From an uncultured Acidobacteriota bacterium (GTDB lineage: Bacteria; Acidobacteriota; Vicinamibacteria; Marinacidobacterales; SMYC01), in assembly GCA_963815675.1 (NCBI GenBank), contig CAWFHP010000006.1, positions 448,360 to 512,359 of the forward strand: a DNA stretch of 64,000 nt, written 5' to 3'. Shown here one piece after another: positions 1,459 to 60,483 of the stretch. The notes under the pieces are model-generated. The model was not told the origin of the DNA. It saw only the letters and a list, made by a program, of their open reading frames with translations, and searched no databases. A program made the translations under genes and the position numbers. The stretch's first letter is position 1. Every line of letters starts with the position of its first letter.

Positions 1459-1542
1459 GAGACGGTCCGGGATGGTGAGACGCGAAGGGATCTGACCTCC
1501 AACCTGCGGATCAAGGGTCGGGATGGTCTGAATATCTATCCA

Positions 1543-5482: not shown

Positions 5483-5549
5483 GTATTCTTCTCACTCCGC
5501 ACCTGGCCTGCAGAGTGGAAGACTCAAAAGACGAACGGGAGGAAGAGAG

Positions 5550-6756: not shown

Positions 6757-8169
6757 CTAGGCGTTTGGAGCGGGCTTCAGTTCGTAGAGCCGGATGTCTG
6801 CGTTTCTGATCAACGCTTCGATGGTGTCTCCATCTTCGGGGTAGACGGCAAACCCGGCGCTCACGGAGATCGGCGGATGTTCTGAGTCCTGGGCCAACTG
6901 TCGCCGGATTCGTTCTATCACGGTCATCACCGCAGGCCGGTGGGACTCCGGCAGCACCAGCACGAACTCGTCGCCGCCATATCGAGCGGCCGTGTCCACC
7001 GCTCGGCAGGTGTCCCTTAGCGCGTCGGCCAATCGGCACAATGCGCGGTTTCCGACGAGATGGCCGTACCGGTCATTCACTGACTTCAACCCGTCGAGGT
7101 CGAACAGCAAAACCGCAAACGGGTGCTCGGTGCGCTGAGATCGCTCCATTTCGTGCTCGAGCACGTCCATCAGTCGACGGTAGTTCGCCAGCCCCGTCAG
7201 CGGATCCGACATCGACAGGTCGTGCAGACGCTGGACCAACTTCCGCCGCTCTCTCACCGTGGCCGCAAAGAGCAACGTGCCAACCCCCGTCACACCAATG
7301 TACGCCTGAAGCAGTAACAGGCTCAGTGGGGTCGACTCGCCAGCAAAGGGCCCGTAGCCGTTCACCGTACCCCAGACCGCCACTGCGGAGACCAGCAACA
7401 TTCCCGTTGCTGCCACGCGTGGACTGAGACGCAGCGCCGCCCATCCAACGAAGGGCACACATACGAAGTCGACGGGATAATTTCGCACGCCGAGCGGAAG
7501 GACCCCGCCAAACACCGCGATGCTTGCGAGGGCTATCGTCACACTCACCGCGCTGGCCTCCAGGATCTTCGCTCGCGTCCAATGCATCGGCGGGGGAAAG
7601 ATCCACAACAAGATGACCGGCGCGATAACGAGCGCGCCGCCCGCGTCACCGGCCCACCACGTCAGCCAGATCTCGCCGTAGCTCGTCCACTCGGCAAGGC
7701 CTCCGATCGTGAGCGTCGTCACGCCGATCGTTGCGGCCAGGGCGGGACTCAGTCCGGCCGCGAATACCGTATAACAGGCAACGTCGCGCACCGCCTCGAA
7801 GGATCTCGAACCATTGGCGAACCGGTTTACAAGATACGTCGCCATCACCGGCTCGAGCGTGTTGCCGAGCGCGATCGCCAAGGATGTCCACACCGACCCC
7901 GCGGTGGTTACGTTGACCACGAACGCCGCAACGAAAATAGCCGGCCATACCCACGTTCCCAGAATCAGGCATGCCGCCAGTGCGATCCCGGTCGGCGCCC
8001 ATACGAGTGTTGCGCTGGTGTGGACGACCGCCAGCTCGAGACCGAGCTTCCCGGCAACGAAATATGCTACCGCGAGCATCACGAGAAGGCCTGCGCGTCG
8101 AGGCAAGTCCCTTTCGTGCGAGCTCAAGCCGTTCGTTTCTGGTTCCATGAACGAATCAGTCTGATTCAT
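6757..8169 (-). CDS. MASE1 membrane sensor-diguanylate cyclase (GGDEF)
   Basis: Intact 470-aa ORF. Multi-TM N-terminus followed by a GGDEF domain with the RYGGDEF motif. Confidence 0.85.
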   Translation of the reverse strand: MNQTDSFMEPETNGLSSHERDLPRRAGLLVMLAVAYFVAGKLGLELAVVHTSATLVWAPTGIALAACLILGTWVWPAIFVAAFVVNVTTAGSVWTSLAIALGNTLEPVMATYLVNRFANGSRSFEAVRDVACYTVFAAGLSPALAATIGVTTLTIGGLAEWTSYGEIWLTWWAGDAGGALVIAPVILLWIFPPPMHWTRAKILEASAVSVTIALASIAVFGGVLPLGVRNYPVDFVCVPFVGWAALRLSPRVAATGMLLVSAVAVWGTVNGYGPFAGESTPLSLLLLQAYIGVTGVGTLLFAATVRERRKLVQRLHDLSMSDPLTGLANYRRLMDVLEHEMERSQRTEHPFAVLLFDLDGLKSVNDRYGHLVGNRALCRLADALRDTCRAVDTAARYGGDEFVLVLPESHRPAVMTVIERIRRQLAQDSEHPPISVSAGFAVYPEDGDTIEALIRNADIRLYELKPAPNA

Positions 8170-8271
8170 AGACCTGGACGCGGCAACCGACGAAGGTGCC
8201 TTTCGATGGCATCAACTTGTCGCCGTCCTCGGAATCTATGGAATGACCGAGGAAGGGGATCTCTCACAAGT

Positions 8272-8347
8272 TGGTGAGCCGCGAAGGAATCGAACCTTCA
8301 ACCTACGGATTAAGAGTCCGTTGCTCTGCCAATTGAGCTAGCGGCCC
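8272..8347 (-). tRNA. tRNA-Lys (anticodon CTT)
   Basis: Manual fold. Acceptor GGGCCGC/GCGGCTC, anticodon loop CTCTTAA, T-loop GGTTCGATTCC, encoded CCA. Confidence 0.8.
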
Positions 8348-8367
8348 ACAGTAATGGCTTACGTGGC

Positions 8368-8444
8368 TGGTACGCCTGAGAGGATTCGAACCTCTGACCT
8401 TCTGCTCCGGAGGCAGACGCTCTATCCAGCTGAGCTACAGGCGC
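8368..8444 (-). tRNA. tRNA-Arg (anticodon CCG)
   Basis: Manual fold. Acceptor GCGCCTG, D-loop AGCTGGATAGAGC, anticodon loop CTCCGGA, T-loop GGTTCGAATCC, CCA. Confidence 0.8.
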
Positions 8445-8533
8445 ATGCCTTCGAGAACGCTCTCGTAAACGTCTCTCCGGAAGCCCAAAGGATAGTACGA
8501 GGGCGCACCTCGCCGCAAGTCCACTGTCGGATG

Positions 8534-10502
8534 TCAGATCGAGTGGACCTTTTCGAGCTCGGGCTTGCGATCGCTCTCCGTCGCCCCCGCTTCTGATGCA
8601 GGCCCGGGCGCCTGTTCGCCGACGGGCTTCCGCACGATCCCGTCGAAGAGGAACATCGACGAGTCGGCGAGGACGCCCTGGGCGAGGCGATAGCCCATGC
8701 GGTCGGTGTTGCGGCCGACGCCCCGGAAGGCGTCCTCGATCCGCAGTCGGGAGTTCGCGCAGAAGTGCTCGACGAGAGCGAGGACTTCTTTACGGTCGAC
8801 TCCCTCCCCGATGAGCGCCTGCGCCCGGGTGGCGGAGGCGGCCTGGGCGAAGAGCTCGGTGCCGACATCCACGAATCGCGCGAGGAGCATCTGCTCCCGC
8901 TCGAGCTTGGGTCCGTACTTCACCATGGCGTAGAACATCTTCCGCGCGAGCTTCTTGCTGGTGCGACCGACATAGCGCATGTGAGAGGCGAGCGCGCGGT
9001 CCATCCCGGCGGTCGGAACCATGGCGGGAAGCGAAGGTTCGCGGATACCAGCTGAGGTAGAACAGGCCCGCCTTCATCGCGGCAGCGAAGCGCCGGCCGA
9101 AGGGAAGCTTCGGGTTCATCACCGCCCCCGCGACCTTCAGGTGCGGGTCCATGGCCTCGCGGGCGATGAAGAGGCGCATGATCTCCGTCGAGCCCTCGAA
9201 TATCCGGTTGATGCGGGCGTCGCGCATGGCGCGCTCGATCATGAACGGCTTGTCTCCGCGGGCCCTCGAGGACTGCGCGGTCTCGTACCCCCGGCCCCCG
9301 AGAATCTGCATCGTTTCGTCGACGATGTTCCAGGCGGCCTCGGTCCCGAACATCTTGGTCATCGCCGCCTCGACACGGATGTCCGTCTTCTTGCGGTCGA
9401 CGAGCGCGGAAGTGAGGTAGGTCATGGACTCGATCGCAAAAATCGTCGAGGCGATGCGGGCGATCTTGTCGGCGATGGCGGCGTGCTTGCCGATGGGAGC
9501 ACCCCACTGCTCGCGCTCGTTGGCCCACCCTTTCGCCATTTCGAGCGAGCGCTTCGCGAGCCCGACGCAAACGGCGGGGAGCGTGATCCGGCCGGTGTTG
9601 AGCGTGGTGAGCGCGACCCGGAGCCCCTTGCCTTCGCCGGCAATGATGTTCTCCCTCGGTACTTTCACGTCGGTGAAGCGAAGGACGCCGTTATAGAGCG
9701 CCTTCAGACCCATGAACTCGCATCGATGCACGACTTCGATGCCCGGTGACGCGGCATCGACGACGAACGCCGTGATTTGATCGCGCTTGCGCCCGTTCAC
9801 CAGTTTCGCCGGGGTCTTGGCCATGACGACGATGAAGGCGGCACGGGTGCCGTTGGTGCACCATAGCTTCTCACCGTTGATGACGTAGAACTTCCCGTCC
9901 TCGGTCGGCTCGGCCGTAGTCTCCATCCTTGCCGGGTCGGAGCCGACTCCCCGCTCGGTGAGGGCGAAAGCCGAGATCTCGCCCGCCGCGACCCTTGGAA
10001 GGAAACGCTTCTTCTGCTCCTCGGTGCCGAAAAGGAGAAGCGGCTGAGGGACTCCGATCGATTGGTGAGCGGAGAGCAGAGCGGAAAGGTTTCCGCAGTA
10101 GCTCCCCAGAAGCACCGCCGCACGGGTATAGACCTGCTGGGTGAGCCCGAGCCCGCCGTACTCGCGCGGGATCTTGATCCCGAACGCTCCGAGAGCGCGC
10201 AATCCCTCGATGACCCGTTCCGGGATCTCGCCTTCGCGATCGATGCGGTCGGGGTCGACCTCTTCGCGCAGGAATCGTTCGAGCTCGGAGAGAAACCGGC
10301 GCCCGCGCTCGTCCTGGTCGGAGGCGAGCTCGGGATAAGGATGGACGAGACGAAAGGGAACGTCACCCATGAACAGGGCGCCGGCGAAAGTCGGATACTC
10401 CCAGAACCCCTCGCGGGACGATTCGGTGAGCTCGAAGGCAGCGCGTTTCGCCTCCGACATCTTCGACGTGTCGAGGACCGGCTCGTTCGGTTGCTGGCTC
10501 AT
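8534..10502 (-). CDS. Acyl-CoA dehydrogenase (long form with C-terminal extension); apparent frame change near 9020-9060
   Basis: ORF 8790..10607 carries the ACAD core with the true ATG at 10502 (MSQQPNEPV...). The C-terminal extension (MVPTAGMDRALASHMRYVGRTSKK...) continues in a second frame, 8534..9022. Confidence 0.75.
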
Positions 10503-11259: not shown

Positions 11260-11550
11260 GTGATTACCATATCCATCACGGTAGATGAACCCCTACTGAA
11301 GGCGGTCGACCGGATCGCGCGAGAATCGAAACGCACTCGGTCCGACGTCTGTCGGTTGGCGCTACGGAAATGGCTGGATGCGCAACGGGAGGCCATCCTC
11401 GTGCGCGAAGAGCGGGAGGCCTATCGGGCTCACCCAGTGACACCGGACGAGTTCGACGACCTGATCACCGCGCAGACGATTCACCTCTTCGAGGACGCCC
11501 CACTCGAGCCTGGCGAGCGTGACGAGCCTCCGGATCGGGACGAACGTTGA
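11260..11550 (+). CDS. Ribbon-helix-helix (CopG/MazE-like) antitoxin
   Basis: 96 aa with an N-terminal RHH (ITVDEPLLKAVDRIARESKRTRSDVCRLALRKWL) and an acidic C-terminal tail. The 4-nt ATGA overlap couples it to the downstream toxin gene. Confidence 0.75.
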   Translation: MITISITVDEPLLKAVDRIARESKRTRSDVCRLALRKWLDAQREAILVREEREAYRAHPVTPDEFDDLITAQTIHLFEDAPLEPGERDEPPDRDER

Positions 11551-11864
11551 CGCGTGCGGAGATCTGGCTGTACCGATTCAAGACTCCGGACAAACAGCGA
11601 CCGGTTCTCATACTCACTCGTCCGGAGATGATTGCCGTTCTGAACACCGTCACTGTGGCAGCACTGACCCGAACGATCCGTGGAGTCGCGAGCGAGGTGG
11701 TGGTAGGTCAGGAGTGTGGGCTCAAAGAGCGGTCCGCCATCAACCTCCATCATCTCTTCACGATTCCGAAGTCGGGGCTCCGCCGTTTCGTCGGCACCGT
11801 GCCCGAGCCCACAATGAAAGCCGTGCGCCGAGCTCTGCTGCACGCGCTGGCGTTCGAATCCTGA
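11547..11864 (+). CDS. MazF/PemK-family endoribonuclease toxin
   Basis: 105-aa PemK/MazF fold sequence (IWLYRFKTPDKQRPVLILTRPEMI..., LHHLFTIPKS). Overlaps the RHH antitoxin gene by 4 nt. Confidence 0.75.
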   Translation: MTRAEIWLYRFKTPDKQRPVLILTRPEMIAVLNTVTVAALTRTIRGVASEVVVGQECGLKERSAINLHHLFTIPKSGLRRFVGTVPEPTMKAVRRALLHALAFES

Positions 11865-11915
11865 GCGATTCTCCAACTCGAGCCTCCACCGCCTTGATTC
11901 CGCGTTTCGCTGCCG

Positions 11916-14375
11916 TCAGTCGTAGCGGAGGGCGCGGATGGGCTCGATGGCCGCGGCGCGGCGAGCAGGCAGATACGTGGCGAGGGTAGCGACGGCGGTG
12001 AGGAAGAGCCCGACGGACGCGAACGTCACTGGGTCCGTGCTGTCGACTCCGTAGAGGATCGCCGACATCAGGCGCGTCGCGGCGAGAGCGCCGAGGGTGC
12101 CTATCGCGACCCCCAGAAGCGTCATGACGAGACCCTGTCGTACCACCATGCGGCTCACATCCGAGCGCGCGGCGCCGAGGGCGATGCGCACACCGATCTC
12201 CCTCGTCCTTTGCCCGACGATATATGAGATCACGCCGTAGATCCCGATGGACCCTAGAAAGAGCGCCACCCCCGCCGCTATGGCGAGAAGCATCATCGTA
12301 TAGCTCGTGCGCGCCAACGAACGAGAGAGGAGCTCGTTTCCGGTCCGGATGCTGATCAAAGGAAGATTCGGATCGAGCGACCAAACGGTGTCGCGCACCG
12401 ACGTCGAGAGACTTCCCGGCGAGACCGTCGACCGCAAACAGAGGGTCATGGTGCGCACGGCCCAATCGTCGTTGTCTTCGCCGAATCCGACGACGGGATA
12501 ATAGATCATCGGGCTCACGGGTTTTTCGAGGCCGTCGTCGTGCACGTCGCCGACGACGCCTACGATCGTGTACCAGTGGTTGATTTTCCGGGGAAGGCCA
12601 GGTGTGAGGCGTTTTCCGAGAGGGCTCTTTCCCGGCCAGAACGTCTCGGCGAGTCCGCGGCTGATCACGACGGCGCCCGTTCGCTCCTCGTGGTCGCGCC
12701 GCTCCAACGTCCGACCCTCCTCGAGAGGAATCCCCATCGCCTCGAAGTAGCCGGACGCCGCCCAGTTGGTGCGGACCACGGGCGGGAGCTCGCCCTCTCG
12801 AACGGGAAAATCTTCGAGGGCCATGCCGTTGTTGGAGTCCGAGCCACCCATGGGAAAATTGCGGATCGCCCCCACCCGGGAAACGCCCGGCAGGGCCCGA
12901 AGCTCGTCCATCAGCTTCTCGTAGAATCGCGCGGCATCGTCCGGCGTCGCATAGCTCGCCTGCGGAAGAGACAGGCGCACCGTCAGGAGATTGCCGGCCG
13001 TCCAGCCGGGGTTCACGTTGCGGAGCGACCAGAACGAGCGCGCCATCAAGCCCGAACCGACGAGAAGAACGAGGGCGAGGGCGACCTGGGTCACGACGAG
13101 CGCGCTGCGCACGAGATGAGTCTGTCGTCCGCTCGAAGCCCGGAGGCTACCCTCCTGGATTGCACGTACCAGATTCGGCCGTCGATACCGCGCGACGGGA
13201 ATGAGGCCGAAGACGAGACCCGCCACAAGTGAAATGGCGGCGGCGAAGGCGACGACCGGCGCGTGGATGCCGACCTCGTGGAGGCGCGGAATGGTCTCGG
13301 GGCTCATGGCGAGAAGCACCTTGAGCGCGGCGAAGGCGATGCCGATGCCGAGAATTCCGGCGAGAGTGGCGAGCACGAGACTCTCGGCGAGAAAGTGCCG
13401 CAGCAGGTCACGACGGCTCGCTCCCAGCGCGACCCGGAGGCCGAGCTCGCGCTGCCTTCCCTCGGCGCGGACGAGAAACAGATTCGCGACGTTGGCGCAG
13501 GCGATGAGGAGAACGACGCTCACCGTTCCCAGAAGGATCCAGAGCACGCGAGACACGTCTCCCACGACGTCCTTCATCAACGGCGTCACGAAGGCGCGGA
13601 GCTGGGCGTGCTCGAGGATCGCTGCGGTGAACTCGCCTGGATAGATGTCGGGGATGCGGTGTAGGAGACCGTCGAGCTCCGCGGTGGCCGATTCCGCCGA
13701 TACGCCGGGCTTCAGTCGGCCGATCCCCTCCTGGCTGAAGTTCACCTTGCCCAGGTCCTTCGGATCGATGACGTGGGGAATCCAGATCGCCGTCGTCTCA
13801 CCCGGGTAGGTGAATCCGTCCTTCATCACTCCGATGACCTGCCAAGGAGTTGCGTTGAGCTGAATCGTCCGTCCGACGATTCCAGGGTCCCCGCCGAAAC
13901 GGCTCCGCCAGAAAGAAAAACCGAGGATCGCGACCTGGGGCGCGCCGGGATCGTCCTCCGCCTCGTCGAAGGTACGACCGAGGAGAGGACGAACGGCGAG
14001 CGTCGGAAAGAGCGAGGCCGTGGCTTCGGCCACGTCGACCTGGGCCGGCTCTCCCACCCCGGTCAAATTCATCGAGTAGGGGCCCTCGGACAGCCCGACC
14101 CCTTCGAAGGACTGCGCGAGGTCGTGGTAGACGGTGTAGGTCGTGTCGGATTGCTGGACTTGCGGAAATCCGACGCCCGGCGCGGAGTGCCAGAGGCCGT
14201 AGAGCCTTTCGGGCTCGGGATAGGGTAGAGGCTTCAGGAGAACGCTCTGGACGATGCTGAAGATCGCGGTGTTCGCCCCGATCCCGAGGGCGAGGGTGAA
14301 GATCGCGACGATGCTGAATCCGGGCGTCCGGACGACTTTCCGCCACACGAGCTTCATATCGTTTCCCAGGTTCAC
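11916..14375 (-). CDS. ADOP-type ABC transporter permease (MacB-like periplasmic domain + FtsX, duplicated)
   Basis: Intact 819-aa ORF. N-terminus typical of Acidobacterial duplicated orphan permeases. Two FtsX-like 4-TM modules. Confidence 0.85.
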   Translation of the reverse strand: MNLGNDMKLVWRKVVRTPGFSIVAIFTLALGIGANTAIFSIVQSVLLKPLPYPEPERLYGLWHSAPGVGFPQVQQSDTTYTVYHDLAQSFEGVGLSEGPYSMNLTGVGEPAQVDVAEATASLFPTLAVRPLLGRTFDEAEDDPGAPQVAILGFSFWRSRFGGDPGIVGRTIQLNATPWQVIGVMKDGFTYPGETTAIWIPHVIDPKDLGKVNFSQEGIGRLKPGVSAESATAELDGLLHRIPDIYPGEFTAAILEHAQLRAFVTPLMKDVVGDVSRVLWILLGTVSVVLLIACANVANLFLVRAEGRQRELGLRVALGASRRDLLRHFLAESLVLATLAGILGIGIAFAALKVLLAMSPETIPRLHEVGIHAPVVAFAAAISLVAGLVFGLIPVARYRRPNLVRAIQEGSLRASSGRQTHLVRSALVVTQVALALVLLVGSGLMARSFWSLRNVNPGWTAGNLLTVRLSLPQASYATPDDAARFYEKLMDELRALPGVSRVGAIRNFPMGGSDSNNGMALEDFPVREGELPPVVRTNWAASGYFEAMGIPLEEGRTLERRDHEERTGAVVISRGLAETFWPGKSPLGKRLTPGLPRKINHWYTIVGVVGDVHDDGLEKPVSPMIYYPVVGFGEDNDDWAVRTMTLCLRSTVSPGSLSTSVRDTVWSLDPNLPLISIRTGNELLSRSLARTSYTMMLLAIAAGVALFLGSIGIYGVISYIVGQRTREIGVRIALGAARSDVSRMVVRQGLVMTLLGVAIGTLGALAATRLMSAILYGVDSTDPVTFASVGLFLTAVATLATYLPARRAAAIEPIRALRYD

Positions 14376-45511: not shown

Positions 45512-45588
45512 TGGCGCGCCCGGTAGGGCTCGAACCTACGACCTACAGATTCGAAGTCTGGCGCTCTATCCAACTGAGCTACGGGCGC
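45512..45588 (-). tRNA. tRNA-Arg (anticodon TCG)
   Basis: Manual fold. Acceptor GCGCCCG/CGGGCGC, anticodon loop CTTCGAA, T-loop GGTTCGAGCCC, CCA. Confidence 0.7.
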
Positions 45589-45642
45589 GATCGAACCAAC
45601 AAACTATAAAGGAGCATGGAGCTGGAGACAAGGAGGCGACGT

Positions 45643-45718
45643 CTGGGGTGGGTGATGGGGCTCGAACCCACAACCACTGGAGCCACAGTCCAGTGCTCTA
45701 CCATTGAGCTACACCCAC
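45643..45718 (-). tRNA. tRNA-His (anticodon GTG) with an encoded G-1
   Basis: Anticodon loop CTGTGGC. Extra 5' G pairs with C73. CCA end present. Confidence 0.75.
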
Positions 45719-45731
45719 CGCAAGATCCCAT

Positions 45732-45808
45732 TTGGTACGCCAGGGAGGACTCGAACCCCCGACATGCGGCTTAGAAGGCCGCCGCTCTATCCACCTGAGC
45801 TACTGGCG
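45732..45808 (-). tRNA. tRNA-Arg (anticodon TCT)
   Basis: Anticodon stem GCGGC/GCCGC, loop CTTCTAA, T-loop GGTTCGAGTCC, CCA. Confidence 0.75.
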
Positions 45809-45843
45809 CACGAGCTTTCGCTCTGTTTCCTTCCAGTCCCCGT

Positions 45844-45922
<79 letters not shown>

Positions 45923-45962
45923 CGTGGAAACCAGCTATTATAGGGTTCTTCGAGCGCAGGCG

Positions 45963-46567
45963 TCAACGAAGGCGCGCGGTCTCTTCCAAATAGGCTCTGA
46001 GGGCCTTCATCGCCTTTCCCCGATGGCTGACGCGGTTCTTCGCGTCGGGGTCGATTTCGGCGAGCCTTCGGGCGAGGGGAGGATAGAAGAAGATGGGGTC
46101 ATATCCGAAGCCCCCTTCACCTCCGGGCTCGAGGGCGATGATCCCTTCGCAGGTGGCTCTATGCTCGAAGAGGATCCTGCCGCCAACAGCGAGCGCGATG
46201 GCACTCACGTAGCGGGCCGCCCTCTCTTCCCAGGGTACTCCCGCGAGAAGCTCGAGCAGCCGGGCGTTCTTCACCTCGTACGAAGTCTCCGCGCCCAGCC
46301 ATCGGGACGACTCGACGCCGGGAGCACCTTTTAGAGCGTCGACGACGAGACCGGCGTCCTCGGCGACCGCGGAAAGGCCGGTGACGCGTTCGTAGTAGAT
46401 GGCCTTCACGGAAGCGTTGTCTCGGAAGGTCGGACCCGGCTCGGCGGGAGGCTCGAGAGGTTGGGACCACTCATCGAGGCCGACGAGCTCCACGCCGCCG
46501 AGGCCGGCGAGAGCAACTCGTTGCTCGCGAAGTTTTCCTCGACTGGTCGTAGCGAGAAGAAGCTTCA
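45963..46567 (-). CDS. rdgB: RdgB/HAM1-family non-canonical purine NTP pyrophosphatase (dITP/XTPase)
   Basis: LLLATTSRGKLRE, GFGYDPIFF and similar motifs. Probable TTG start at 46567, overlapping the rph stop by 3 nt. Confidence 0.75.
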
Positions 46568-49797: not shown

Positions 49798-51156
49798 TTA
49801 TTCGGAAACGAGCTCCGCGCGCCTCGTCGGATCGTGCTCGAGCACGTACTCGCCGAGGTGGGTGATCTGCTCTTCGCCCATGAGATAGCGCAGCGTGTTC
49901 TTCAGCTTGGTGAGCTGGATGAACACGTCGTGCTCGGGGTAGAGACCCTCCGGAGTCATCGGGCTCTTGAAATAGAACGAGAGCCACTCCTGGATTCCCT
50001 TGAGCCCCGCCCGCTGCGCGAGGTCGAAGAACAGCGCCAGGTCGAGTACGAGCGGTGCGGCCAGGATCGAGTCGCGACAGAGGAAGTCGACCTTGATCTG
50101 CATCGGGTATCCGAGCCATCCGACGATGTCGATGTTGTCCCAGCCCTCTTTGTTGTCTCCCCGAGGCGGGTAATAGTGGATGCGGACCTTGTGGTAAAAG
50201 CTCCCGTAGAGGTCGGGGTAGAGATCCGGCTGTAGGATGTACTCCAGAACGGAGAGCTTGGACTCTTCTTTGGTCTTGAACGAGCCTGGATCGTCGAGGA
50301 CCTCGCCGTCCCGATTTCCCAGAATGTTCGAGGAGAACCAGCCCGAGAGCCCCAGCATCCGCGCCTTGAGACCGGGCGCGAGAATCGTTTTGAGGAGCGT
50401 TTGCCCCGTCTTGAAGTCCTTCCCGCCGATAGGAATGCCCCGATCGTAGGCGAGGTGCGTGAGGGCGGGAATATCCACCGTCAGGTTGGGAGCGCCGTTC
50501 GCGAAGGGGACCCCGCACTGGAGGGCGGCATAGGCGTAGATCATGCTGGGAGAAATGTCGGGAGAGCTCTCTTTGAGCCCCTTTTCGAAGCTGTCCAGGT
50601 CCTTGAGGACGGGGGTCCGCTCGAGGAAGGTCTCCGTGGAGGCGCACCAGACCATGACCGCGCGGCTCGCCCCGGTCTTTCGCTTGACCTCGCGAATGTC
50701 CTCCATGAGCTGCTCGGCGAGGTCCATCTTCGTCTTGCCCGTCTTGACGTGGGTACCGTTGAGCCTCTTCACGTAGTTCTGGTCGAAAACGGCTTTCATC
50801 GGCTTGACCGCTTCGAGGTCGGGGCGGAGCTCGTCCAACAGATGGCGCTCCAGCACTCCCGCGTTCCGGGCCGACTCGTAAGCGTCGTCCTCGAAGATGT
50901 CCCAGGCGGCAAACGAGAGGTCGGCGAGCTCCGCGAGGGGAACGAAGTCCTTGATCATCGGAGCTCGTTTCTCCGTGCGTTTTCCGAGGCGGATGGTCCC
51001 CATCTGGGTCAGCGAGCCAATGGGCTTCCCCAGGCCCTTTCGTACCGCTTCGACCCCGGCAATGAACGTGGTGCTCACGGCACCGAGTCCGGGCAAGAGG
51101 ACCGCGAGCCCACCTTCGGGCGCGCTCACTTCGAATCGCTTTTCCGTCGCCATCGC
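49798..51156 (-). CDS. ino1: myo-Inositol-1-phosphate synthase (archaeal/short bacterial type)
   Basis: Real start MATEKRFEVSAPEGG at 51156. MIPS core motifs are present (GGKDFKTGQT; NGAPNLTVDIPALTHLA). Confidence 0.8.
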   Translation of the reverse strand, partial: AMATEKRFEVSAPEGGLAVLLPGLGAVSTTFIAGVEAVRKGLGKPIGSLTQMGTIRLGKRTEKRAPMIKDFVPLAELADLSFAAWDIFEDDAYESARNAGVLERHLLDELRPDLEAVKPMKAVFDQNYVKRLNGTHVKTGKTKMDLAEQLMEDIREVKRKTGASRAVMVWCASTETFLERTPVLKDLDSFEKGLKESSPDISPSMIYAYAALQCGVPFANGAPNLTVDIPALTHLAYDRGIPIGGKDFKTGQTLLKTILAPGLKARMLGLSGWFSSNILGNRDGEVLDDPGSFKTKEESKLSVLEYILQPDLYPDLYGSFYHKVRIHYYPPRGDNKEGWDNIDIVGWLGYPMQIKVDFLCRDSILAAPLVLDLALFFDLAQRAGLKGIQEWLSFYFKSPMTPEGLYPEHDVFIQLTKLKNTLRYLMGEEQITHLGEYVLEHDPTRRAELVSE

Positions 51157-51295
51157 CACTCCTGGAGAAGAATCGTTTCTCCCGCAACGTGCGGAAGATG
51201 AAGAGGCAGATTTTGACGCAGCCGCCGACGAGACGCAAGGGACGCCCCGGCCGGGCCGCGGCAATGCTCCAGCGAGTCATGTATACTCCGTATTC

Positions 51296-52148
51296 ATGAA
51301 AATCTCGACCGATCGCTGCGTCGCATGCGGGAACTGCATTCCCGTCTGCCCGGTGGGGGCGATCGACATCGATCCCGGCATCCACCGCGCCGTGGTCGAT
51401 CAGGACCGCTGTGTCGAGTGCTTCACCTGCTTCCGCGGGCTCTCCACCGAGCATCTGAACCCCACAATCGTGCGAACCCTCCGAAAGGTGCTGGGCTGGG
51501 CGCGGGTACGATTCGACCCGGAGCCCGACGTCTGCCCCACCGCCGCCATCGAGCCTGCAAGAGCTCTCCTGGCCTCGCATCGTGCGCCGGGCGTTCAGCG
51601 ATCCGCTCGTGCCCCACGAGAGCACGGGCATTCACGGCCGGGGAACGGAAGAGGTCAAGACCAACGACGTTACCCATCGTGTCGGGGAGGGCGAAGCGGG
51701 CTTCACCGTCGAGTTCGGCCGTCCCACGGTGTCCGCCCGTTTCCGGGACATTTCCGTCATGACCGAGGCCCTGGCGAAGCTGGGTGTGACGTTCGAGTCC
51801 AACAATCCCGTCACCCACCTCATGGTCGACCGCTCGACGGGAAAGATTCGTGAGGACATCCTCGACGAGCGCGTTCTCTCTGCCATCGTCGAGATCAAGA
51901 CGAGCCTCGACCGGGTTGCCGAGATCCTGCGGACGGTGACCGCGGTCTCGAAACGGCTCGATACCATCGTCTCCATCGGGGTCTCGACCCGCTGCAACGC
52001 CAATGGGAGGAGCGCCCTCGAGGACGTGCTGCGAGCCGAGGGATTCCCCTTCTGGAGAGGCAAGACCAACCTCGGGCTCGGGCGTCGTCCCGCGCCTTCC
52101 GATGCCGCCCGCGCCGGAGCGGAAGCGGTCACGGCTCCTTCGCGCTGA
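51296..52148 (+). CDS. 4Fe-4S dicluster ferredoxin-domain protein with a C-terminal domain of unknown function; apparent frame change near 51570
   Basis: Two Cys clusters (CVACGNCIPVCP; CVECFTCF). The C-terminal ~180 aa continue in ORF 51582..52148. Confidence 0.5.
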
Positions 52149-52828
52149 TGACGAACACTCTCCATCGCTACGGCCTGCCCGAGTCTCTCGAGAACGATTT
52201 CATCGTCTTCGCCATGGCGGCCCGGGGAGTGAACGATCAGGGATCGGTCGAGAAATTTCAGGAGTTTCTCCGCGTCGCCCGCAAGCACCGGCCCGTCAAT
52301 CTCGGGGACGCCACCAAGGGCGGGGTCTATCGACCGTCGAAACGCCTCAATCCACTGGCCCACTGGTTCAGAAGAGACGAGCGGGATCCCGAGGACCTCG
52401 TCCGCGGTGTGAACCAACCGACGGTCGTCTCGGCGGTCTTCGACAACAAGGAAGACCTCGAGAGCTTTCTGAGAGAGGTGAAGGCGGCGGACCTCGGACT
52501 CTCCATCAATATTAGTGCGCTCACCGATCGGGCCGACGAGGTCGCGAGCCAGGCGGGGATTACCCGCCACAGCGTCGAGTACTCCCTCGGTTTCTTCGGC
52601 GCTCTCGACAAGCTTCCCGACCGGGCGACGCTGTCTCTCGCCACGATGTGCGGCCACGGCATGATCTCGTTCAACTTCGCGAAGAAGATGATCGACTGGG
52701 TCAAGGAAGGACGCCGGTCGCCGAAAGAAGCTTCGACCTACATGGCGCGTTTCTGCACGTGCGGCATCTTCAATACGACCCGCTCCTGCACGATCCTGAA
52801 CGATTGCGCTCATCGGAAAACCGACTGA
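52148..52828 (+). CDS. Hypothetical protein (226 aa), translationally coupled to the ferredoxin-domain gene
   Basis: Clean ORF with the start overlapping the upstream stop. Conserved-looking Cys/His pairs (MCGHGM; CTCGIFNTTRSCTILNDCAH). Confidence 0.45.
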   Translation: MTNTLHRYGLPESLENDFIVFAMAARGVNDQGSVEKFQEFLRVARKHRPVNLGDATKGGVYRPSKRLNPLAHWFRRDERDPEDLVRGVNQPTVVSAVFDNKEDLESFLREVKAADLGLSINISALTDRADEVASQAGITRHSVEYSLGFFGALDKLPDRATLSLATMCGHGMISFNFAKKMIDWVKEGRRSPKEASTYMARFCTCGIFNTTRSCTILNDCAHRKTD

Positions 52829-53137
52829 CTTCCTTGCTCACCGCGCTCACCGGCCCGCGGTCTCCGTCCCATGAGTTAAGATACCGGCGAGGGGTTGGAG
52901 CTCCATGAATCTGGCCTGGAAACGGCTCGATGCCGAGGCTTCGGCCGTCGAGCTCGACGCCGAGGCTTCCCCGGACGAACGAATCGCCGCACCCCTTTCC
53001 GAGTCGGCGCGGCCGTGGATACTATGGCTCGGTGAGGACGACGCGGCAGCCGAACGAGCGGCTCGGCGCTTCCTGAAAGCCGTGCACGAGACGTTGCTAT
53101 AGTCTCCCCGCCGGCGGAGCTTCCGCTTCCCCTCGCC

Positions 53138-54314
<1,177 letters not shown>

Positions 54315-54335
54315 CACTGAGTAGGAGAGGAGAAG

Positions 54336-55458
54336 GTGCTGACGCTCGAGCAGGTTCGGCGTCTCAAGGAAGTTCTTCGCGCGACCTCCGCGCCCCTCTC
54401 CTTCGAGAGCTTCCCGAGCTTCGCCGAAGCGGTCTTGAACCCTCTCATCGATCTCGTCGGCGGCCAGGGCGGGAATCTCTACATTACCGACGTCAAGGCG
54501 AGCCAGAAACCCCTCTTCCTCTGGCACACGTACGATTGCGGCCTCGTACCCGAATATCAGGGCCGGTTCTTCAAAGAGTCGCCGATTCACCTCATGGTGC
54601 CCAAGCGCATCCGGGTCGGACAGACGTGCCAGTACGTCGACTACGATCAATTCATGACGACGGCCTTTTACAACGAATTCCTCGCTCCCCGGCGGATCCA
54701 CCACATGGCGACTCTCATCGCCCGGCTCCCCGAGCAGGGACGAAGCGAGGGAGGCCTCGGTATCCTCGGTCTGCACCGTGATCCGGAGCACGAAGCCTTC
54801 TCGGCCGACGAGCTCGAGATCCTGGATTTCCTCTACAACCCCGTGGAAGGGGCGCTCCACACGCTTCTTCTCGCCGGGAGCGAGAGACAGCACCTCGAGC
54901 AGGCCTTCCGCGCTCTCCCCGTGGGCGTTCTGGTGCTGAACTGGAAGCTCGAGAGGGTTTACACGAACCCGGCGCTCGACGAGGCGTTCGGTGAACAACG
55001 AGCTGACAACGTGCGAATGCGCGGGGATTCGCGCGCTCGCGGAACGGGTTCGGGATCGATATCTGGAACAACCCGCCGGCGAGCCCGAGCCCCAGGCGGG
55101 GCCTCTGCGGGTGTACCGGAACGATCGACACTTCGTCGTACGAGCAACGGTGCTGCCGGAAGGGTTGATGAGCGCCCGGCCGCATCTTCTCTGCCTGTTC
55201 GAGGAGCCCCGGGGATCGTCGCTCGCTCGTCCGAATCGCCCGCAGATCCAGCAGGCCTTCGGCCTCACCGATCGCGAGGCCGAGGTCGTTTGCCACTGTC
55301 TTTTGGGCCTCACCAACCGGCAGATCGCGGCCGAGATGAAGATCGCGACGGAAACGGTGAAACATCACCTCAAGAGAGTCTTCGAGAAGACCGGCGTCGT
55401 CCGCCGCTCGCAGCTCGCGGCGATGCTTCAGAGGACGGACGAAAGCGAGCGCCCTTGA
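54336..55458 (+). CDS. LuxR-family transcriptional regulator (N-terminal sensory domain + C-terminal HTH); apparent frame change near 54990
   Basis: C-terminal LuxR HTH LTDREAEVVCHCLLGLTNRQIAAEMKIATETVKHHLKRVFEKTGV lies in ORF 54991..55458. The N-terminal ~220 aa are in ORF 54336... Confidence 0.65.
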
Positions 55459-55492
55459 TGTCGCCCACGATCGCGGGAGAGACTGTAGCAGG

Positions 55493-56795
55493 ATGAATCG
55501 TCGCGACTTCTTCAAGCGGGCGGGAGCACTCGGGGCGTGTACGTTGCTCCGGCCACGCAGCGGCGAGTGGATTCCCGGGCGTGCGACGACCTTTCCCGAA
55601 GGCCCGGGGTTTCGGACGAAGCATCTCGTGACCATCCTTCTCGGAAACGGGGCCCGGCGCATCGACGTCATCGACAACCCGGCGCAGTGCCCTTTCCAGT
55701 CGAAGATGGCGGGGGAGGGAACCCTCTTCGTCGAGGACTACGGGGAGACGGTCAACCTCCACGGTTACATGTACAGCGAGCTCCTCACCGGCCGCGACGC
55801 GCCGTCCCAACGTCCCCTCTTTCCCACCTGGAACGAGTACGTTCGGAAAAAGACCGGCGCTCGCGCCTCCGACTTCTGGATGCTCCAGGGGGCTTCGTAC
55901 TACCGGGCGTGGGCCTGGGACGTGAAACATTTCAGCAATCATCCCGACTATGGCATTCGCTACGGCGCCACGAGCCTCACGATGTCCAAGCTCTTCGCGA
56001 ACGGTGGCAGACGCTCTCCCCGCGAGCTCTACGCTCTCAACGTCGAGCCAGGGCTCGGACACAGCGCGAGAGAGCGCGGGAGGATCGAAGAATGGATCGC
56101 GGACGTTCTCGCGAGTCGGTCGTACGAGCTCCCCTCGACGACGAGACCCGTCATCGAGCGTCCCTTCCCGATCGGCGACGCCCAGGCGATCGTTCTCGCG
56201 GGGAAGATTCCTCCGTGACTTCAAGCCGAAGATGGTCACGGTGCAGCTCCTGGCTCTCGATGACGCCCACTCCGATTTCGGCAGCGCGGGCGGCGAGACC
56301 GGATTCGAGACCTACCTGCGGCATCTCGGAGCGCTCGACGAGCTCATCGGGAGGCTATGGGCGGAGATTCAGTCGGATCCAGAACTGAAGGAGACGACCG
56401 CCCTCATCATCCGCCCCGAGTGCGGTCGCGACGAGGAGGTGGACCGATACGGACAGCTCGGCCACAGCCCCGGGGACGACCACGCGCACAGCGTCTGGAC
56501 GAGTGCCCTCGGTCCCGATTTCGAGAGGGGACGAGTCGTGCGGGAGCGCGTCGAACGGCGGGACCTGGCTCCCACCATCACGTATCTGATGAGCGGCGGG
56601 ATCGCTGAGTACGCCACCGGACACGTCCGGACGCAGCTCTTCCGGGACCCAGGCGGGATTCCCGCGTACATTTTCCCTTCCGTCGGCCGAGAGGCTAGAA
56701 ATGAGAAACGCGGTGGTGGTAGACTAAGAGTGCTATTATCGAGGACCCACGCCCAGTCGGCTCGGGCTCCGACTATCGAGGAGTACCAGACATGA
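55493..56795 (+). CDS. Tat-secreted DUF1501 (sulfatase/phosphatase-fold) family protein; apparent frame change near 56205
   Basis: Tat motif MNRRDFFKRAGALGA. C-terminal DUF1501-like block (IIRPECGRDEEVDRYGQLGHSPGDDHAHS...DLAPTITYLMSGG) lies in ORF 55950..56795. Confidence 0.55.
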
Positions 56796-57064
56796 AGGAC
56801 GATCTGACACGCCGAGACTTTCTGAAAGCCGCTGGACTCGCCGCCGCCGGTGTTGCCGGCGCCGCGGTCCTCTCCCGCACCGCCGGGGCGCAGGAGCAGG
56901 AACCGAAAAAGGACGCGGATCCGGAGCAGAAGAAAGACGACAAGCCGCCCGAGGACAGCACTCCGCAAGAAGAGACCCGGGCTTGCCCGCAGTGCGGCGC
57001 CCTCATGTACAAACAGGGCCGAACCTGGACCTGCGAGAACTGCGGATACAGCTACGTCGAGTAG
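56792..57064 (+). CDS. Small Tat-signal protein with a C-terminal CxxC...CxxC zinc ribbon
   Basis: MKDDLTRRDFLKAAGLAAAGVAGAA, a low-complexity Lys/Asp/Pro linker, then CPQCGALMYKQGRTWTCENCGYSY. Start overlaps the upstream stop. Confidence 0.55.
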   Translation: MKDDLTRRDFLKAAGLAAAGVAGAAVLSRTAGAQEQEPKKDADPEQKKDDKPPEDSTPQEETRACPQCGALMYKQGRTWTCENCGYSYVE

Positions 57065-57164
57065 CCCCGCAAATCGATTTTCTTCTCTGAATCGGGATAC
57101 GAGCCGGAGTCGCCAATAAGGCGCTCCGGCGTTTTCGTTTCCGCCCTCTCCCGCTCCCGCGAGA

Positions 57165-57992
57165 TCAGGGCCGCGGAATGAAGAGGTGACCGATGATCAG
57201 AAACAGGATCAGGCTCGCGCAGAGCGTGAAGTGGGGAGCGGTCAGGCGCGGGTAGCGCCAGAGCCAGAACTTCCCTTTCGGTTCCCGACCGTTCATCGCC
57301 ATCCTTGCGTAGAGGATCCGCTGCACGCTGATGAGGTTGGTGAAGACGGTGAGTATCCAGAGGGTGATGTGGACGTTTCCCGCGAGCAGCCCGATGATGA
57401 TCGTAACCGTCCGCTCCGCCCGCTCCATGAATCCGACTTTGCACTCCGGAATGACGTTCTCCGCCCGGGCACGGATATAAGAGGTCGTGGCCGTCCCGGT
57501 CGCCGAAAATCCCCAGAGCACGAGGTAGAGCGTCCGCCCCGGCCCGTGAACGTACCGCAGCAGGTACATCAGGATGCCGAGCAGCATCAGGAAGTCGGTA
57601 TATCGATCCGTCACCGAGTCGAGGAAGCCGCCGAACGCGGTAGAGCGTCTCGAGATCCGTGCCACGGCTCCATCGAGCATGTCGAAAGCCCCGGCACAGA
57701 TGAGCACCACGCCCGCGAGCCACTGAACGCCCTGGAACATCGGCATGAACACGAGGGAAACGGCGACGGGACCGGTCAAGGTGACCGCGTTCACCGGGAT
57801 CCCCGCGCGGATGATGCCGCGGGCAATACTGTCTCGCAGGAAGCCGAAGACACCTGCCACCGCCTTCGAAAGAGCGATGGCGATCGAACGGAGGATCTCC
57901 CTCAAACCCGGTGGCTGCGGAAGAGTGCTCTCCTTGACGCCCAACTGTTCTCCTTTGGTGGAACGTGTCAAAACGCCCATGCACTTTACCAT
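57165..57992 (-). CDS. CDP-alcohol phosphatidyltransferase (phosphatidylinositol-phosphate / archaetidylinositol-phosphate synthase-like)
   Basis: Signature D-x2-DG-x2-AR...G-x3-D-x3-D reads FDMLDGAVARISRRSTAFGGFLDSVTDRYTD. Multi-TM. Confidence 0.8.
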   Translation of the reverse strand: MVKCMGVLTRSTKGEQLGVKESTLPQPPGLREILRSIAIALSKAVAGVFGFLRDSIARGIIRAGIPVNAVTLTGPVAVSLVFMPMFQGVQWLAGVVLICAGAFDMLDGAVARISRRSTAFGGFLDSVTDRYTDFLMLLGILMYLLRYVHGPGRTLYLVLWGFSATGTATTSYIRARAENVIPECKVGFMERAERTVTIIIGLLAGNVHITLWILTVFTNLISVQRILYARMAMNGREPKGKFWLWRYPRLTAPHFTLCASLILFLIIGHLFIPRP

Positions 57993-58120
57993 ATTTTCTT
58001 GCCGCTCCGCCGCGTGCGACCCGGGCCCGAGGACGGCGCGTCTCCCCGGAAGCTTTACCTGCCGTTCGGGTTAGAATCGAGCTCGTGACCTCTTCCACAC
58101 CGGTTGCAAACGCGGCGGCG

Positions 58121-59045
58121 ATGCCGCTGGTGATCGTCAATCCTGCCTCTCGTGGAGGAGACGCGGCGCGGGACTGGCCCAAGGCCGCGGTCGCGCTCCG
58201 TTCCCATTTCGGCGCGTTCGAGTGCCGCTTCACCGAGCACCCGGGCCATGCGGTGCGCATCGCCCGCGAGGAAGCCGATCGAGGGCGAGCGCTCGTCCTC
58301 ACGTTCGGCGGCGATGGCACCATCTCCGAGACCGCGCGGGGAATTCTGGAATCGGGAAAGCCGGTGGAGCTCGGGATCCTGCCCCACGGAACGGGAGCCG
58401 ATCTCGTTCGCTCGCTCGCTCTTCCCACGAGGACGGCGGACGCTGCCCGGGCGCTGCAGGCGTGGAAAGACGGTCGCGATCGACGTCGGCCGCGTCGTCT
58501 TCGCCGACGGAGAAGAAAAGACCTTCATCAATTCCGCATCCTTCGGGCTCTCGGCGGAAGTCGCGCGGCGGATGAACGGGCGGGACCGCCGAAGCTACGC
58601 GACGGAAACGGTCCGGGCGGCGCTCGACTACGGTTTCCCCGAAGTCGCGATCTCCGTCGACGGAAAGCCGGGCCGCCGGCTGAGGGTCACCACCGTTTCT
58701 CTTCACAACGGACGCTTCTTCGGCGGCGGGATGAAAATGGCCCCGGAGGCGAGTGTCACGGACGGACGACTCGACGTGGTGGTGGTCAAGAAGATGCCAG
58801 TCACCCGGCTCCTTCGTCATGCCCCGCTCCTCTACGTCGGGGCGCACCTCGGGCTCGCGGAAGTGGAGCACGGTCAGTGCTCTCGGCTGGAAGCCTTCCC
58901 GACCCGTCCGGGAGAATCGATTCCGGTGGAAGTCGATGGCGAAGTGCATCGCTCCCTCCCCGCGATCTTCGAGGTCCGACCGCGAGCGCTTCGTTTGAGG
59001 ATTCCGTTCTTCGACGTCGCGAGTCATCGGACGGGCATGCTATAA
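58121..59045 (+). CDS. Diacylglycerol-kinase catalytic-domain lipid kinase (YegS/BmrU-like); apparent frame change near 58460
   Basis: N-terminal part (MPLVIVNPASRGG...TFGGDGT) in ORF 57965..59059. C-terminal part in ORF 58152..59045. Confidence 0.65.
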
Positions 59046-59234: not shown

Positions 59235-60483
59235 ATGTCCGAGAACCATTCCGTCGAGCGTGAGCCGGGGCTCTCCCTCGACGATCATCGAAGAATCGGC
59301 CGCGAGCTCGACCTGTTCTCGTTCGCGGAAGCGGTCGGGCCCGGCCTCGCACTGTGGCACCCCAAAGGGGCACTCGTCCGTATCGGCCTCGAGGACTACT
59401 GGAGAAAGGAGCACCTCGCTCGAGGATACGATTCTCGTGTACTCGCCTCACCTCGGCCGGAGCACGCTCTGGGAGACGAGCGGCCACCTCGACTTCTATC
59501 GCGACTCGATGTACGCGCCGATGACGGTCGACGAGCAACGCTATTACGTGAAACCGATGAACTGCCCGTTTCACATGCAGATCTTCGCGTCGAGGCGTCG
59601 TTCCTATCGGGAGCTCCCCCTCCGCCTCGCCGAGCTCGGGACGGTCTATCGATACGAGCGAAGCGGTGTCCTGAACGGGCTGTTGCGTGTGCGGGGGTTC
59701 ACGCAGGACGACGCGCACATCTTCTGCCGCAACGATGAGGAAGGGGAGCTCGAAGAGGAGATTGCCGGAGTTCTGCGGTTCATCGTGGAGTTTCTCGAGG
59801 CCTTTCGCTTTCGGCGTCTCGCGTTCTCGCTGAGCACGAGACCCGAGAAATCCGTGGGAAGCGAAGCCCGCTGGGTCGCCGGGGAAGCCGCCCTGGCACG
59901 GGCGCTCGAGAGGGTGGGCCGCTCGTACGAAGTCGACGACGGCGGCGGAGCTTTCTACGGACCCAAGATCGACGTCCACGTCGAGGACGACCTCGGCCGT
60001 CCCTGGCAGCTCTCCACGGTCCAGGTGGATTTCAACCTGCCCGAGCGGTTCACCCTCGGGTACGTGGGCCCGGATGGTCGAGAGCACGTTCCCTTCGTCG
60101 TCCATCGGGCAATCTTCGGATCGCTCGAGCGCTTCTTCGCCATCCTCGTCGAGCACTATGCCGGCGCATTCCCCCTCTGGCTCGCTCCGCTCCAGGCCCG
60201 CGTCCTTCCCGTGGCCGAGCGGCACCAGAAACGAGCGAGAGACGTCGAGGAGCTCCTCCGGCGCGAGGAGCTTCGGGTGGATGTCGACGCGCGAGGTGAG
60301 CCGCTGGGCGCGCGGGTGAGGGACGGCGAGCGCGAGAAAGTTCCCTATCTCGTCGTCATCGGCGATCGAGAGATCGCTTCCGGCTCGATCTCCGTCCGGA
60401 AACGGGGCGGGTCACCGAGCGAAAGCGTCGAGCTTGCACCCTGGATCAGCGCGGTCGCGGAAGAGCAGCGGAAGAGGCTTTGA
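59235..60483 (+). CDS. Truncated threonyl-tRNA synthetase (catalytic + anticodon-binding domains only, no N-terminal TGS/editing domains); apparent frame change near 59425
   Basis: Starts at [14 protein letters not shown], the first motif of the class II core. Core motifs in ORF 59260..60483 (FRDSMYAPM; [13 protein letters not shown]; GPKID; HRA) plus a C-terminal anticodon-binding domain. Confidence 0.7.

Follow-up and report, generated by a model that had tools for sequence, protein, structure and literature searches.

A widespread ferredoxin-domain gene pair of predicted Fe-S function lies beside genes of a putative inositol-phospholipid route in Vicinamibacteria

In Bacteroides thetaiotaomicron, BT_1526, BT_1523 and BT_1525 have been shown by experiment to make phosphatidylinositol (PI) through phosphatidylinositol phosphate (PIP), and deletion of BT_1526, the protein solved as PDB 7NWR, abolishes inositol lipids (PMC9246714). 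In mycobacteria, the diacylglycerol (DAG) kinase Rv2252 feeds the synthesis of PI and phosphatidylinositol mannosides (PIM) (PMC3229680). Our literature search found no report of inositol lipids in Acidobacteria or Vicinamibacteria, nor of a ferredoxin pair beside ino1. Here, we analyse a stretch of 64,000 nucleotides from an uncultured acidobacterium (contig CAWFHP010000006.1, positions 448,360 to 512,359; hereafter the window), which has a G+C content of ~64% and whose closest relatives are metagenome-assembled genomes (MAGs) of Vicinamibacteria (phylum Acidobacteriota). Between 49.8 and 59.0 kb, it carries genes for an inositol-3-phosphate synthase (MIPS, the ino1 product), a CDP-alcohol phosphatidyltransferase resembling PIP synthases (the transferase) and a lipid kinase (the kinase), together with a gene pair beside MIPS that we refer to as FER, for its ferredoxin domain, and X226, for its length of 226 aa (Table 1). 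We put a probability of roughly 60% on the reading that the region combines an inositol-phospholipid route of the mycobacterial and Bacteroides kind with a functionally separate, autonomous FER-X226 iron-sulphur (Fe-S) module, the two sharing a stretch of chromosome that is conserved in the class. To judge by sequence comparison, the novel element is FER-X226, which falls in no described family, and the inositol part belongs to a known kind of pathway.

The likeness to the B. thetaiotaomicron cluster BT_1522-BT_1526 (PMC9246714) lies in a MIPS of the BT_1526 subtype and a transferase with the catalytic motif of BT_1523, and the window genes are most naturally read as a PI route of two steps with PIP as the intermediate. 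Unlike that cluster, the window genes do not form one operon, neither a BT_1525-like PgpA phosphatase nor a BT_1522-like PI-ceramide synthase was seen near them, and the conserved partner of the transferase is a YegS-type kinase. With the mycobacterial Ino1/PgsA1/Rv2252 pathway, the window shares a kinase of the Rv2252 family and a transferase whose best solved relative is PgsA1; it differs in that MIPS is not of the actinobacterial type, no PIM mannosyltransferases were seen, and the host is an acidobacterium.

FER and X226 are real conserved genes rather than chance open reading frames (ORFs), since FER has 5888 homologues and X226 has 4637 (90%-clustered database; 822 representatives at 50% identity). 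The intact FER, read from L001, a metagenomic contig of 96.5% identity to the window, has 283 aa; in the window, the gene gave a Fer4 match (Pfam, E 9.6e-10, 38.3 bits). In an alignment of 25 sequences, two sets of cysteines are invariant (C8, C11, C14, C18 and C39, C42, C45, C80), as is C233; the layout is CxxCxxCxxxCP followed by CxxCxxC-x34-CP, the second motif thus containing a 34-residue insert. The eight cysteines and the Fer4 match support the predicted 2x[4Fe-4S] ferredoxin-domain protein, although the protein is not encoded by one ORF in the window. The ferredoxin domain is followed by an extremely conserved stretch, WPR(I/V)VRRAFSDPxVxHESTG(I/V)HGRGTEEVKTND, and by a C-terminal alpha/beta domain that ends in RGKTNLGLG. 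Only the ferredoxin part of FER gave matches in Pfam, NCBIfam or the PDB, and beyond residue ~50, there was none in Pfam or the PDB. In the AlphaFold2 (AF2) model (pLDDT 64), the C-terminal domain appears as a confident alpha/beta domain, and a Foldseek search of the PDB with this domain returned nothing below E 1e-3. One NCBI record of a FER homologue carries a DUF362 label; hmmscan at E<=10 gave no DUF362 match.

X226 gave no match in Pfam, NCBIfam or the PDB sequences, and its named copies are all labelled 'hypothetical protein'. The description of this protein as Cys/His-rich in the original prediction was overstated: it has five cysteines, of which only three are invariant (C168, C203 and C205), accompanied by five invariant histidines (H6, H47, H72, H141 and H170). 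The invariant stretches are the N-terminus MTNTLHRYG, HSVEYSLGF, TMCGHG and FCxCG. Comparison of 21 close and 30 distant homologues showed an invariant N-terminus, M-T-x-T-L-H-R-x-G, which hardly ever carries an extension, and conservation of H(S/T)VExSLG, TMCGHG and CxCGxFN in both groups, the core in the distant members being T2, R7, C-G-H and CxC. The three invariant cysteines and the adjacent histidine are likely to form a metal or cluster site. The AF2 model of X226 (pLDDT 70) has a ferredoxin-like N-terminal half, and ferredoxin-like beta-alpha-beta domains are present in the models of both proteins; with X226 too, Foldseek found no fold match in the PDB below E 1e-3. A domain common to X226 and the FER C-terminus was sought by hhalign of the two alignments and was rejected at a probability of 1%. 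The distant X226 homologue P0452 is labelled by JGI 'S-adenosylmethionine/arginine decarboxylase-like enzyme'; a pyruvoyl-type E-S or G-S cleavage motif was sought by eye in X226, and the conserved H-S/T-V-E-x-S-L-G does not fit it. Taken with the never-extended N-terminus (Thr2) and ExSLG, the P0452 label raises the possibility of an N-terminal or self-processed catalytic residue.

How widely is the pair distributed, and what accompanies it? Searches of bacterial and archaeal genomes, one per species, gave at least 594 confirmed X226 matches, and tblastn against 72,556 plasmids gave none. Gene context was analysed by ORF clustering in two sets of loci, many of them on short contigs. The first set comprises 55 loci (L029-L083) from NC10/Methylomirabilota, Nitrospirota, Acidimicrobiia, Binatia, Verrucomicrobiia, Deltaproteobacteria, Rokubacteria, Terriglobia and Blastocatellia; two Acidobacteria loci of the Vicinamibacteria type (L032 and L034) are also among them. 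X226 is immediately preceded by FER in 47 of the 55, with four more cases at contig edges, and MIPS was found within 8 kb in none. The recurrent neighbours are DctPQM TRAP transporters (18 loci), a BhcA-like aminotransferase (10), ACS-family MFS transporters (9), an amidohydrolase (9), NMT1-type ABC transporters (8) and TctABC (6), and D-2-hydroxyacid dehydrogenases, an HpcH/HpaI aldolase and an FMN-dependent hydroxy-acid dehydrogenase also occur. The BhcA-like gene, whose best match is the aspartate-glyoxylate aminotransferase BhcA (E 9.7e-140), overlaps the FER start in locus L088. Across phyla, the pair is 55-98% identical, and this high identity argues for one conserved function.

The second set consists of 87 loci of a distant X226 subfamily (205-215 aa) from Moorellaceae, Desulfoscipio, Clostridiaceae, Dehalococcoidia and Anaerolineae (Bacillota and Chloroflexota), only ~40 of which reach further than 3 kb to a given side. 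A FER-like gene accompanies the X226 homologue in 74 of the 87 loci, with a median start 728 bp upstream. The neighbours here are a HIBADH-type dehydrogenase (17 loci), TctC and TctA (14 and 10), a tungsten aldehyde ferredoxin oxidoreductase (AFOR, 12), an amidohydrolase (11), GntR-FCD regulators (10) and a PanB-like protein (7), and MIPS is not among the recurrent neighbour clusters. The operon of loci L090 (positions 1233-5059) and L091 encodes a Fer4_11 protein (178 aa), a Pyr_redox_2 flavoprotein (435 aa), a FER-like protein (246 aa) and an X226::Fer4_11 fusion (411 aa), after which comes a gene of the metallo-beta-lactamase fold. The operon is a Rosetta-stone link of X226 to polyferredoxins.

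Two further arrangements of the pair were noted. In two NC10/Methylomirabilota MAGs (L036 and L039), a tandem FER-X226-FER-X226 lies at ~5444-8657; its second copy has diverged, and the X226 proteins of the tandem share 53% and 62-64% identity with that of the window. In six Bryobacteraceae/Solibacteraceae-type loci (L041, L051, L055, L059, L070 and L074), a membrane fatty-acid desaturase gene is transcribed divergently from the pair and no transporter adjoins it, and in four of the six, a phosphofructokinase gene follows 1-4.6 kb downstream of the pair. Here, then, FER-X226 has a lipid gene as a chance neighbour in a second lineage.

These data raise a key question: does the adjacency of MIPS and FER reflect a shared pathway, or is it gene order inherited within one lineage? 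The adjacency is confined to Vicinamibacteria or 'Marinacidobacterales' loci. Among 28 Vicinamibacteria-type loci, MIPS was found within the fetched stretch in 23, the transferase in 22 and the kinase in 18, and MIPS and FER adjoin in every locus that holds both. The conservation of this adjacency in related genomes, on which the original prediction had rested its own check, is thus borne out within the Vicinamibacteria-type loci and absent from the 55 further loci. Two arrangements occur. In the first (seven loci and the window), MIPS is divergent from FER->X226 at a distance of ~115-160 bp; in the second (16 loci), MIPS->FER form a same-strand tandem 10-33 bp apart, and X226 lies ~1.4-7 kb off on the other strand. 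The tandem may mean that MIPS and FER are co-expressed. In both, the cell-wall amidase gene amiC adjoins MIPS in every locus that reaches that far. In the marine and sponge-associated Acidobacteria of the tandem clade (L010-L024), X226 (~8.0-8.6 kb) and FER (~13.4-14.2 kb) are parted by inserted lysine-biosynthesis genes of the LysW-type lysine/arginine route, which encode a LysX-type ATP-grasp protein, an amino-acid kinase, a semialdehyde dehydrogenase and an Aminotran_3 protein (class-III aminotransferase). The order amiC-MIPS-FER...X226-TPR-410aa-90aa-transferase-kinase is largely kept throughout the class, with only single-gene inversions, which argues for plain inherited order. Since amiC is also kept beside MIPS and lysine genes lie between X226 and FER, synteny by descent is enough to account for the MIPS-FER adjacency, and the data argue for gene order inherited within Vicinamibacteria rather than a predicted shared pathway.

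The alternative is that FER-X226 was recruited to inositol metabolism in Vicinamibacteria, where, expressed together with MIPS, it would either act on inositol phosphate or the PI headgroup by oxidation, reduction or another modification, or control MIPS through its redox state. The invariable adjacency in two arrangements is what this explanation would expect, in two loci (L005 and L013) the pair stands directly between MIPS and the PIP-synthase-like gene, and a zinc alcohol dehydrogenase beside the pair in Moorellaceae partly matches the scyllo-inosose 3-dehydrogenase IolM (1e-44, below the cut-off). However, MIPS is missing within 8 kb of the pair in all 55 further loci, nearly all of them from other phyla, and does not recur in the 87 distant-subfamily loci; the pair shows 55-70% identity across phyla, which speaks for a single function, the transporters that adjoin it are carboxylate-type TRAP and TTT systems, amiC too is kept beside MIPS, and in the tandem clade unrelated lysine genes part X226 from FER. 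We therefore regard recruitment as unlikely, and its narrower form, a co-option to modify inositol phosphate or the PI headgroup, as slightly less likely still. The earlier proposal that the redox pair could modify inositol likewise finds no support in the 55 further loci, which lack MIPS within 8 kb although FER->X226 is kept in 47 of them. Because the widespread module sits with organic-acid transporters in other phyla, FER-X226 is probably a stand-alone module and not an inositol enzyme.

Another important question is what such a module might do. The closest parallel in architecture is the tungsten aldehyde oxidoreductase AorABC (PMC10413684): FER has a 2x[4Fe-4S] domain, the Fer4_11 and Pyr_redox_2 genes of one lineage's operon resemble AorA and AorC, X226 is fused to Fer4_11 in one lineage, and AFOR genes recur as neighbours (12 loci). 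Unlike in AorABC, neither X226 nor the FER C-terminal domain has a catalytic-subunit relative in sequence or fold, and there is no pterin-binding domain, so the likeness is one of operon architecture only. A second parallel concerns the surrounding metabolism. In Binatia, Deltaproteobacteria and related loci, FER is immediately preceded by a gene whose closest match is BhcA of the beta-hydroxyaspartate cycle, and glyoxylate-reductase-like and HIBADH-type dehydrogenases and the HpcH/HpaI aldolase recur near FER-X226. The aminotransferase, however, scores under the equivalog cut-off (466 vs 650), and BhcB, BhcC and BhcD were not seen; the likeness indicates a metabolic neighbourhood and not an assignment.

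Considered together, the domain content and the gene context suggest that FER-X226 is most likely a new Fe-S oxidoreductase (or redox-dependent lyase) of small organic-acid metabolism. The two [4Fe-4S] clusters of FER would serve as an electron wire that connects the catalytic site of X226 with a ferredoxin or NAD(P)H-flavoprotein. X226, with its three-Cys (plus His) site and its never-extended MT(N/H)TLHR N-terminus, is the probable catalytic subunit; its substrate, an imported small molecule of the 2-oxo acid, hydroxy acid or aldehyde type, would be oxidised, reduced or cleaved in a redox-dependent manner. Chemistry in the area of glyoxylate and tartronate semialdehyde is the best contextual guess, at low confidence. 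We would give an even chance to the fuller description of FER-X226 as an undescribed family of heterodimeric Fe-S enzymes, spread over ~600+ species of at least 10 phyla, in which an X226 with a new fold, a 3-Cys/His metal site and an essential free N-terminus would be fed by the FER clusters and would perform a redox step in the catabolism of an imported small 2-oxo acid, hydroxy acid or aldehyde, possibly in the glyoxylate and tartronate-semialdehyde area. The pair is highly conserved, widespread and always a pair, and it lies beside four classes of organic-anion uptake systems (TRAP, TTT, MFS and ABC) and beside glyoxylate, hydroxy-acid and aldehyde enzymes. FER-X226 is thus a concrete enzyme-discovery target for carbon turnover by uncultured soil and sediment bacteria.

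The inositol part of the region can be assigned more closely. MIPS matches NAD_binding_5 (2.5e-98, 329.9 bits; cut-off 25) and Inos-1-P_synth (1.3e-30, 106.2 bits; cut-off 27) in Pfam, and its best solved relative is 7NWR (E 1.3e-158, 532 bits, residues 7-433). The A. fulgidus (1U1I) and yeast (1JKF) enzymes reach 171.8 and 171.4 bits, respectively, and the actinobacterial-type model TIGR03450 gives an E of 0.003. Since the bit score of MIPS against the Bacteroides enzyme is thus threefold that against the A. fulgidus one, its earlier designation as archaeal-type has to be abandoned, and by sequence it is an inositol-3-phosphate synthase of the Bacteroides BT_1526 type. The orthologue on L001 has 451 aa and is 99% identical.

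The transferase belongs to PF01066 (5.9e-16, 59.7 bits; cut-off 22) and has the motif DX2DGX2AR...GX3DX3D, which reads DMLDGAVAR-ISRRSTAF-GGFLDSVTD in the translation. The best NCBIfam score was obtained with the archaetidylinositol-phosphate synthase model NF040950 (6.8e-37, 127.2 bits; cut-off 180), followed by the BT_1523-type model NF052561 (2.8e-29, 102.5 bits; cut-off 350) and the PIP synthase model NF045883 (3.3e-28, 98.7 bits; cut-off 170). The likeness to the archaeal enzyme therefore consists of a top score that is still under its cut-off, and the distance from BT_1523 is larger (103 vs 350). The match to the best solved relative, Mycobacterium tuberculosis PgsA1 (PDB 6h53), has an E of 4.1e-15. 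Because all three NCBIfam scores lie under the curated cut-offs, we name the protein only PIP-synthase-like. The kinase, which starts ~128 bp from the transferase on the opposite strand, has DAGK_cat (2.4e-23, 82.5 bits) in one frame and YegS_C (3e-30, 105.5 bits) in another, and TIGR00147 matches only the C-terminal fragment (4.2e-20, 71.9 bits vs a cut-off of 118.65). The predicted YegS-like kinase is therefore present with both of its domains, although its ORF is broken in the window. The divergent arrangement of transferase and kinase is kept across the Vicinamibacteria-type loci.

A capacity for inositol phospholipid synthesis, probably of PI, is a reasonable inference from these gene identities. 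MIPS would convert glucose-6-phosphate to inositol-3-phosphate, the transferase would join the latter with CDP-diacylglycerol (CDP-DAG) to form PIP, and a phosphatase would then release PI; the kinase would most likely phosphorylate DAG to phosphatidic acid and so replenish CDP-DAG, as for Rv2252. The genes are identified by their matches, and the substrates and products are what we infer from them. The original prediction had left open a lipid or an inositol-derived solute; the lipid part is upheld by a BT_1526-type MIPS near a transferase that matches inositol-phosphate transferases best, and the solute is retained only as a rival explanation. According to this rival, the locus would make a soluble inositol solute (di-myo-inositol-phosphate type) or another headgroup, and the transferase would not be a PIP synthase. 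The sub-threshold NCBIfam scores leave room for it, as do further matches of the transferase to the DIPP-synthase part of IPCT/DIPPS (1.9e-13) and to the structures of AF2299 and 4mnd (~5e-06). Nevertheless, the lipid-forming enzymes score 127, 103 and 99 bits vs 50 bits, no cytidylyltransferase (IPCT) domain is fused to the transferase or adjoins it, and its conserved partner is a lipid kinase, so that we hold a solute or a different headgroup to be improbable. With the PI route through PIP as the preferred explanation, a pathway proven in Actinobacteria and Bacteroidetes would be extended to a common soil and marine acidobacterial class, which is useful for the interpretation of environmental lipidomes and not surprising; the YegS-type kinase is suggested as a fixed partner of the synthase in this class.

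Several observations weigh against the combination of an inositol-lipid route with a separate Fe-S module. The AF2 models of X226 and FER are mediocre, residues 85-125 of FER, its most conserved stretch, are unmodelled, and the oxidoreductase chemistry is predicted. The neighbours of FER-X226 are heterogeneous, and no single substrate emerges from them. The adjacency of MIPS and FER has been kept through two arrangements, with the tandem spacing of 10-33 bp in 16 loci, and this fits a lineage-specific functional link as well. With the transferase under every equivalog cut-off, its specificity for an inositol headgroup is only a prediction. Neither a PgpA-like PIP phosphatase nor an inositol monophosphatase was found among the genes at 49.8-59 kb and 10 further ORFs of the window, in a check that was not exhaustive. 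Finally, the close relatives available for comparison offered no intact kinase gene, and the kinase may be decaying in this strain.

The interrupted reading frames themselves were mapped by aligning the window at 44.2-57.4 kb to L001, which carries intact genes for FER, the LuxR regulator and the 410-aa protein. Relative to L001, the window has 1-bp insertions at 51557 (FER), 54994 (LuxR regulator) and 56208 (410-aa protein), and further small indels are scattered, for example at 51199 and 55557. The insertion at 51557 breaks FER into the ORFs 51296..51853 and 51582..52148. The kinase breaks near 58455-58470; in L005, L007 and L013, each homologue is encoded by one ORF of 305-309 aa, and aligned to these homologues, the window kinase is spread over two frames. 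The coding signal runs on cleanly in the shifted frames of the window. Since it does so and the indels are scattered single bases, the frameshifts are probably sequencing or assembly errors and not gene decay. A rival explanation, in which the locus is decaying in this strain and the broken genes (those of FER, the kinase, the LuxR regulator and the 410-aa protein) have become pseudogenes, could be argued from the interruption of at least four genes within 8 kb, but it is very doubtful, as the breaks located against L001 are single-base insertions scattered through 96.5%-identical sequence, a pattern typical of assembly error, the L001 genes are intact, and the coding signal is undisturbed in the shifted frame. 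Any ORF-based reading of the window must allow for these frameshifts.

The gene map is given in Table 1. Pfam domains and direct reading showed that the gene list, placement and coordinates of the original prediction were essentially right, including the divergence of MIPS from the FER-X226 pair, the coupling of the pair by a shared base (TGATG) and the divergence of transferase and kinase ~6 kb from MIPS. MIPS and the transferase share a strand and are separated by six genes. In the spacer between MIPS and FER, neither a sigma-70-like promoter nor an Rfam element was found.

Table 1 Features of the window between 49.8 and 59.0 kb (positions of the window)
Feature	Position	Strand	Basis and remarks
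MIPS, BT_1526 type, 452 aa	49798..51156	-	Pfam and PDB matches
Divergent MIPS/FER intergenic region, 139 bp	51157..51295		Read from the sequence
FER, N-terminal 2x[4Fe-4S] domain and C-terminal ~190-aa domain	51296..52148	+	Fer4; 1-bp insertion at 51557
X226, 226 aa, unnamed family	52148..52828	+	Start codon overlaps the FER stop by 1 nt
TPR-repeat protein (464 aa in L001)	52900..54314	+	TPR_1 1.6e-32; 5' part disturbed by indels, start approximate
LuxR/GerE-family regulator (373 aa in L001)	54336..55458	+	GerE 9e-14; frameshift at 54994
~410-aa TAT-signal protein, no known family	55493..56795	+	Frameshift at 56208; end approximate
90-aa protein, TAT signal and C-terminal zinc ribbon	56792..57064	+	Weak TAT-signal and Zn-ribbon matches
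PIP-synthase-like CDP-alcohol phosphatidyltransferase	57165..57992	-	PF01066; true start probably downstream of 57992
YegS/Rv2252/BmrU-family soluble lipid kinase	58121..59045	+	DAGK_cat and YegS_C; frameshift near 58455-58470

The genes between X226 and the transferase are conserved to different extents: the TPR gene is kept in 25 Vicinamibacteria-type loci and the window, the larger TAT-signal protein (410-446 aa) in 19 and the 90-aa protein in 14. In L001, the counterparts of the latter two lie at 11323-12555 and 12625-12897, as conserved neighbours beside the PIP-synthase-like gene. For the larger protein, TAT_signal was the only Pfam match, and the PDB gave none; alkaline-phosphatase-like motifs (LDDAHSDFG and GHSPGDDHAH) were noticed by eye. 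If exported, this protein could be a candidate for the missing lipid phosphatase.

Outside this region, a short threonyl-tRNA-synthetase-like gene lies at 59235..60483 (+). By eye, its translation has the catalytic and anticodon-binding parts only, and it is apparently split between two frames near 59430. On the other side, four tRNA genes stand in a row at 45515..45924 (-) (Rfam RF00005, 64-71 bits), just upstream of a block of rdgB, RNase PH, gerM and amiC genes, and translation through these tRNA genes accounts for the long ORF listed at 45732..46334.

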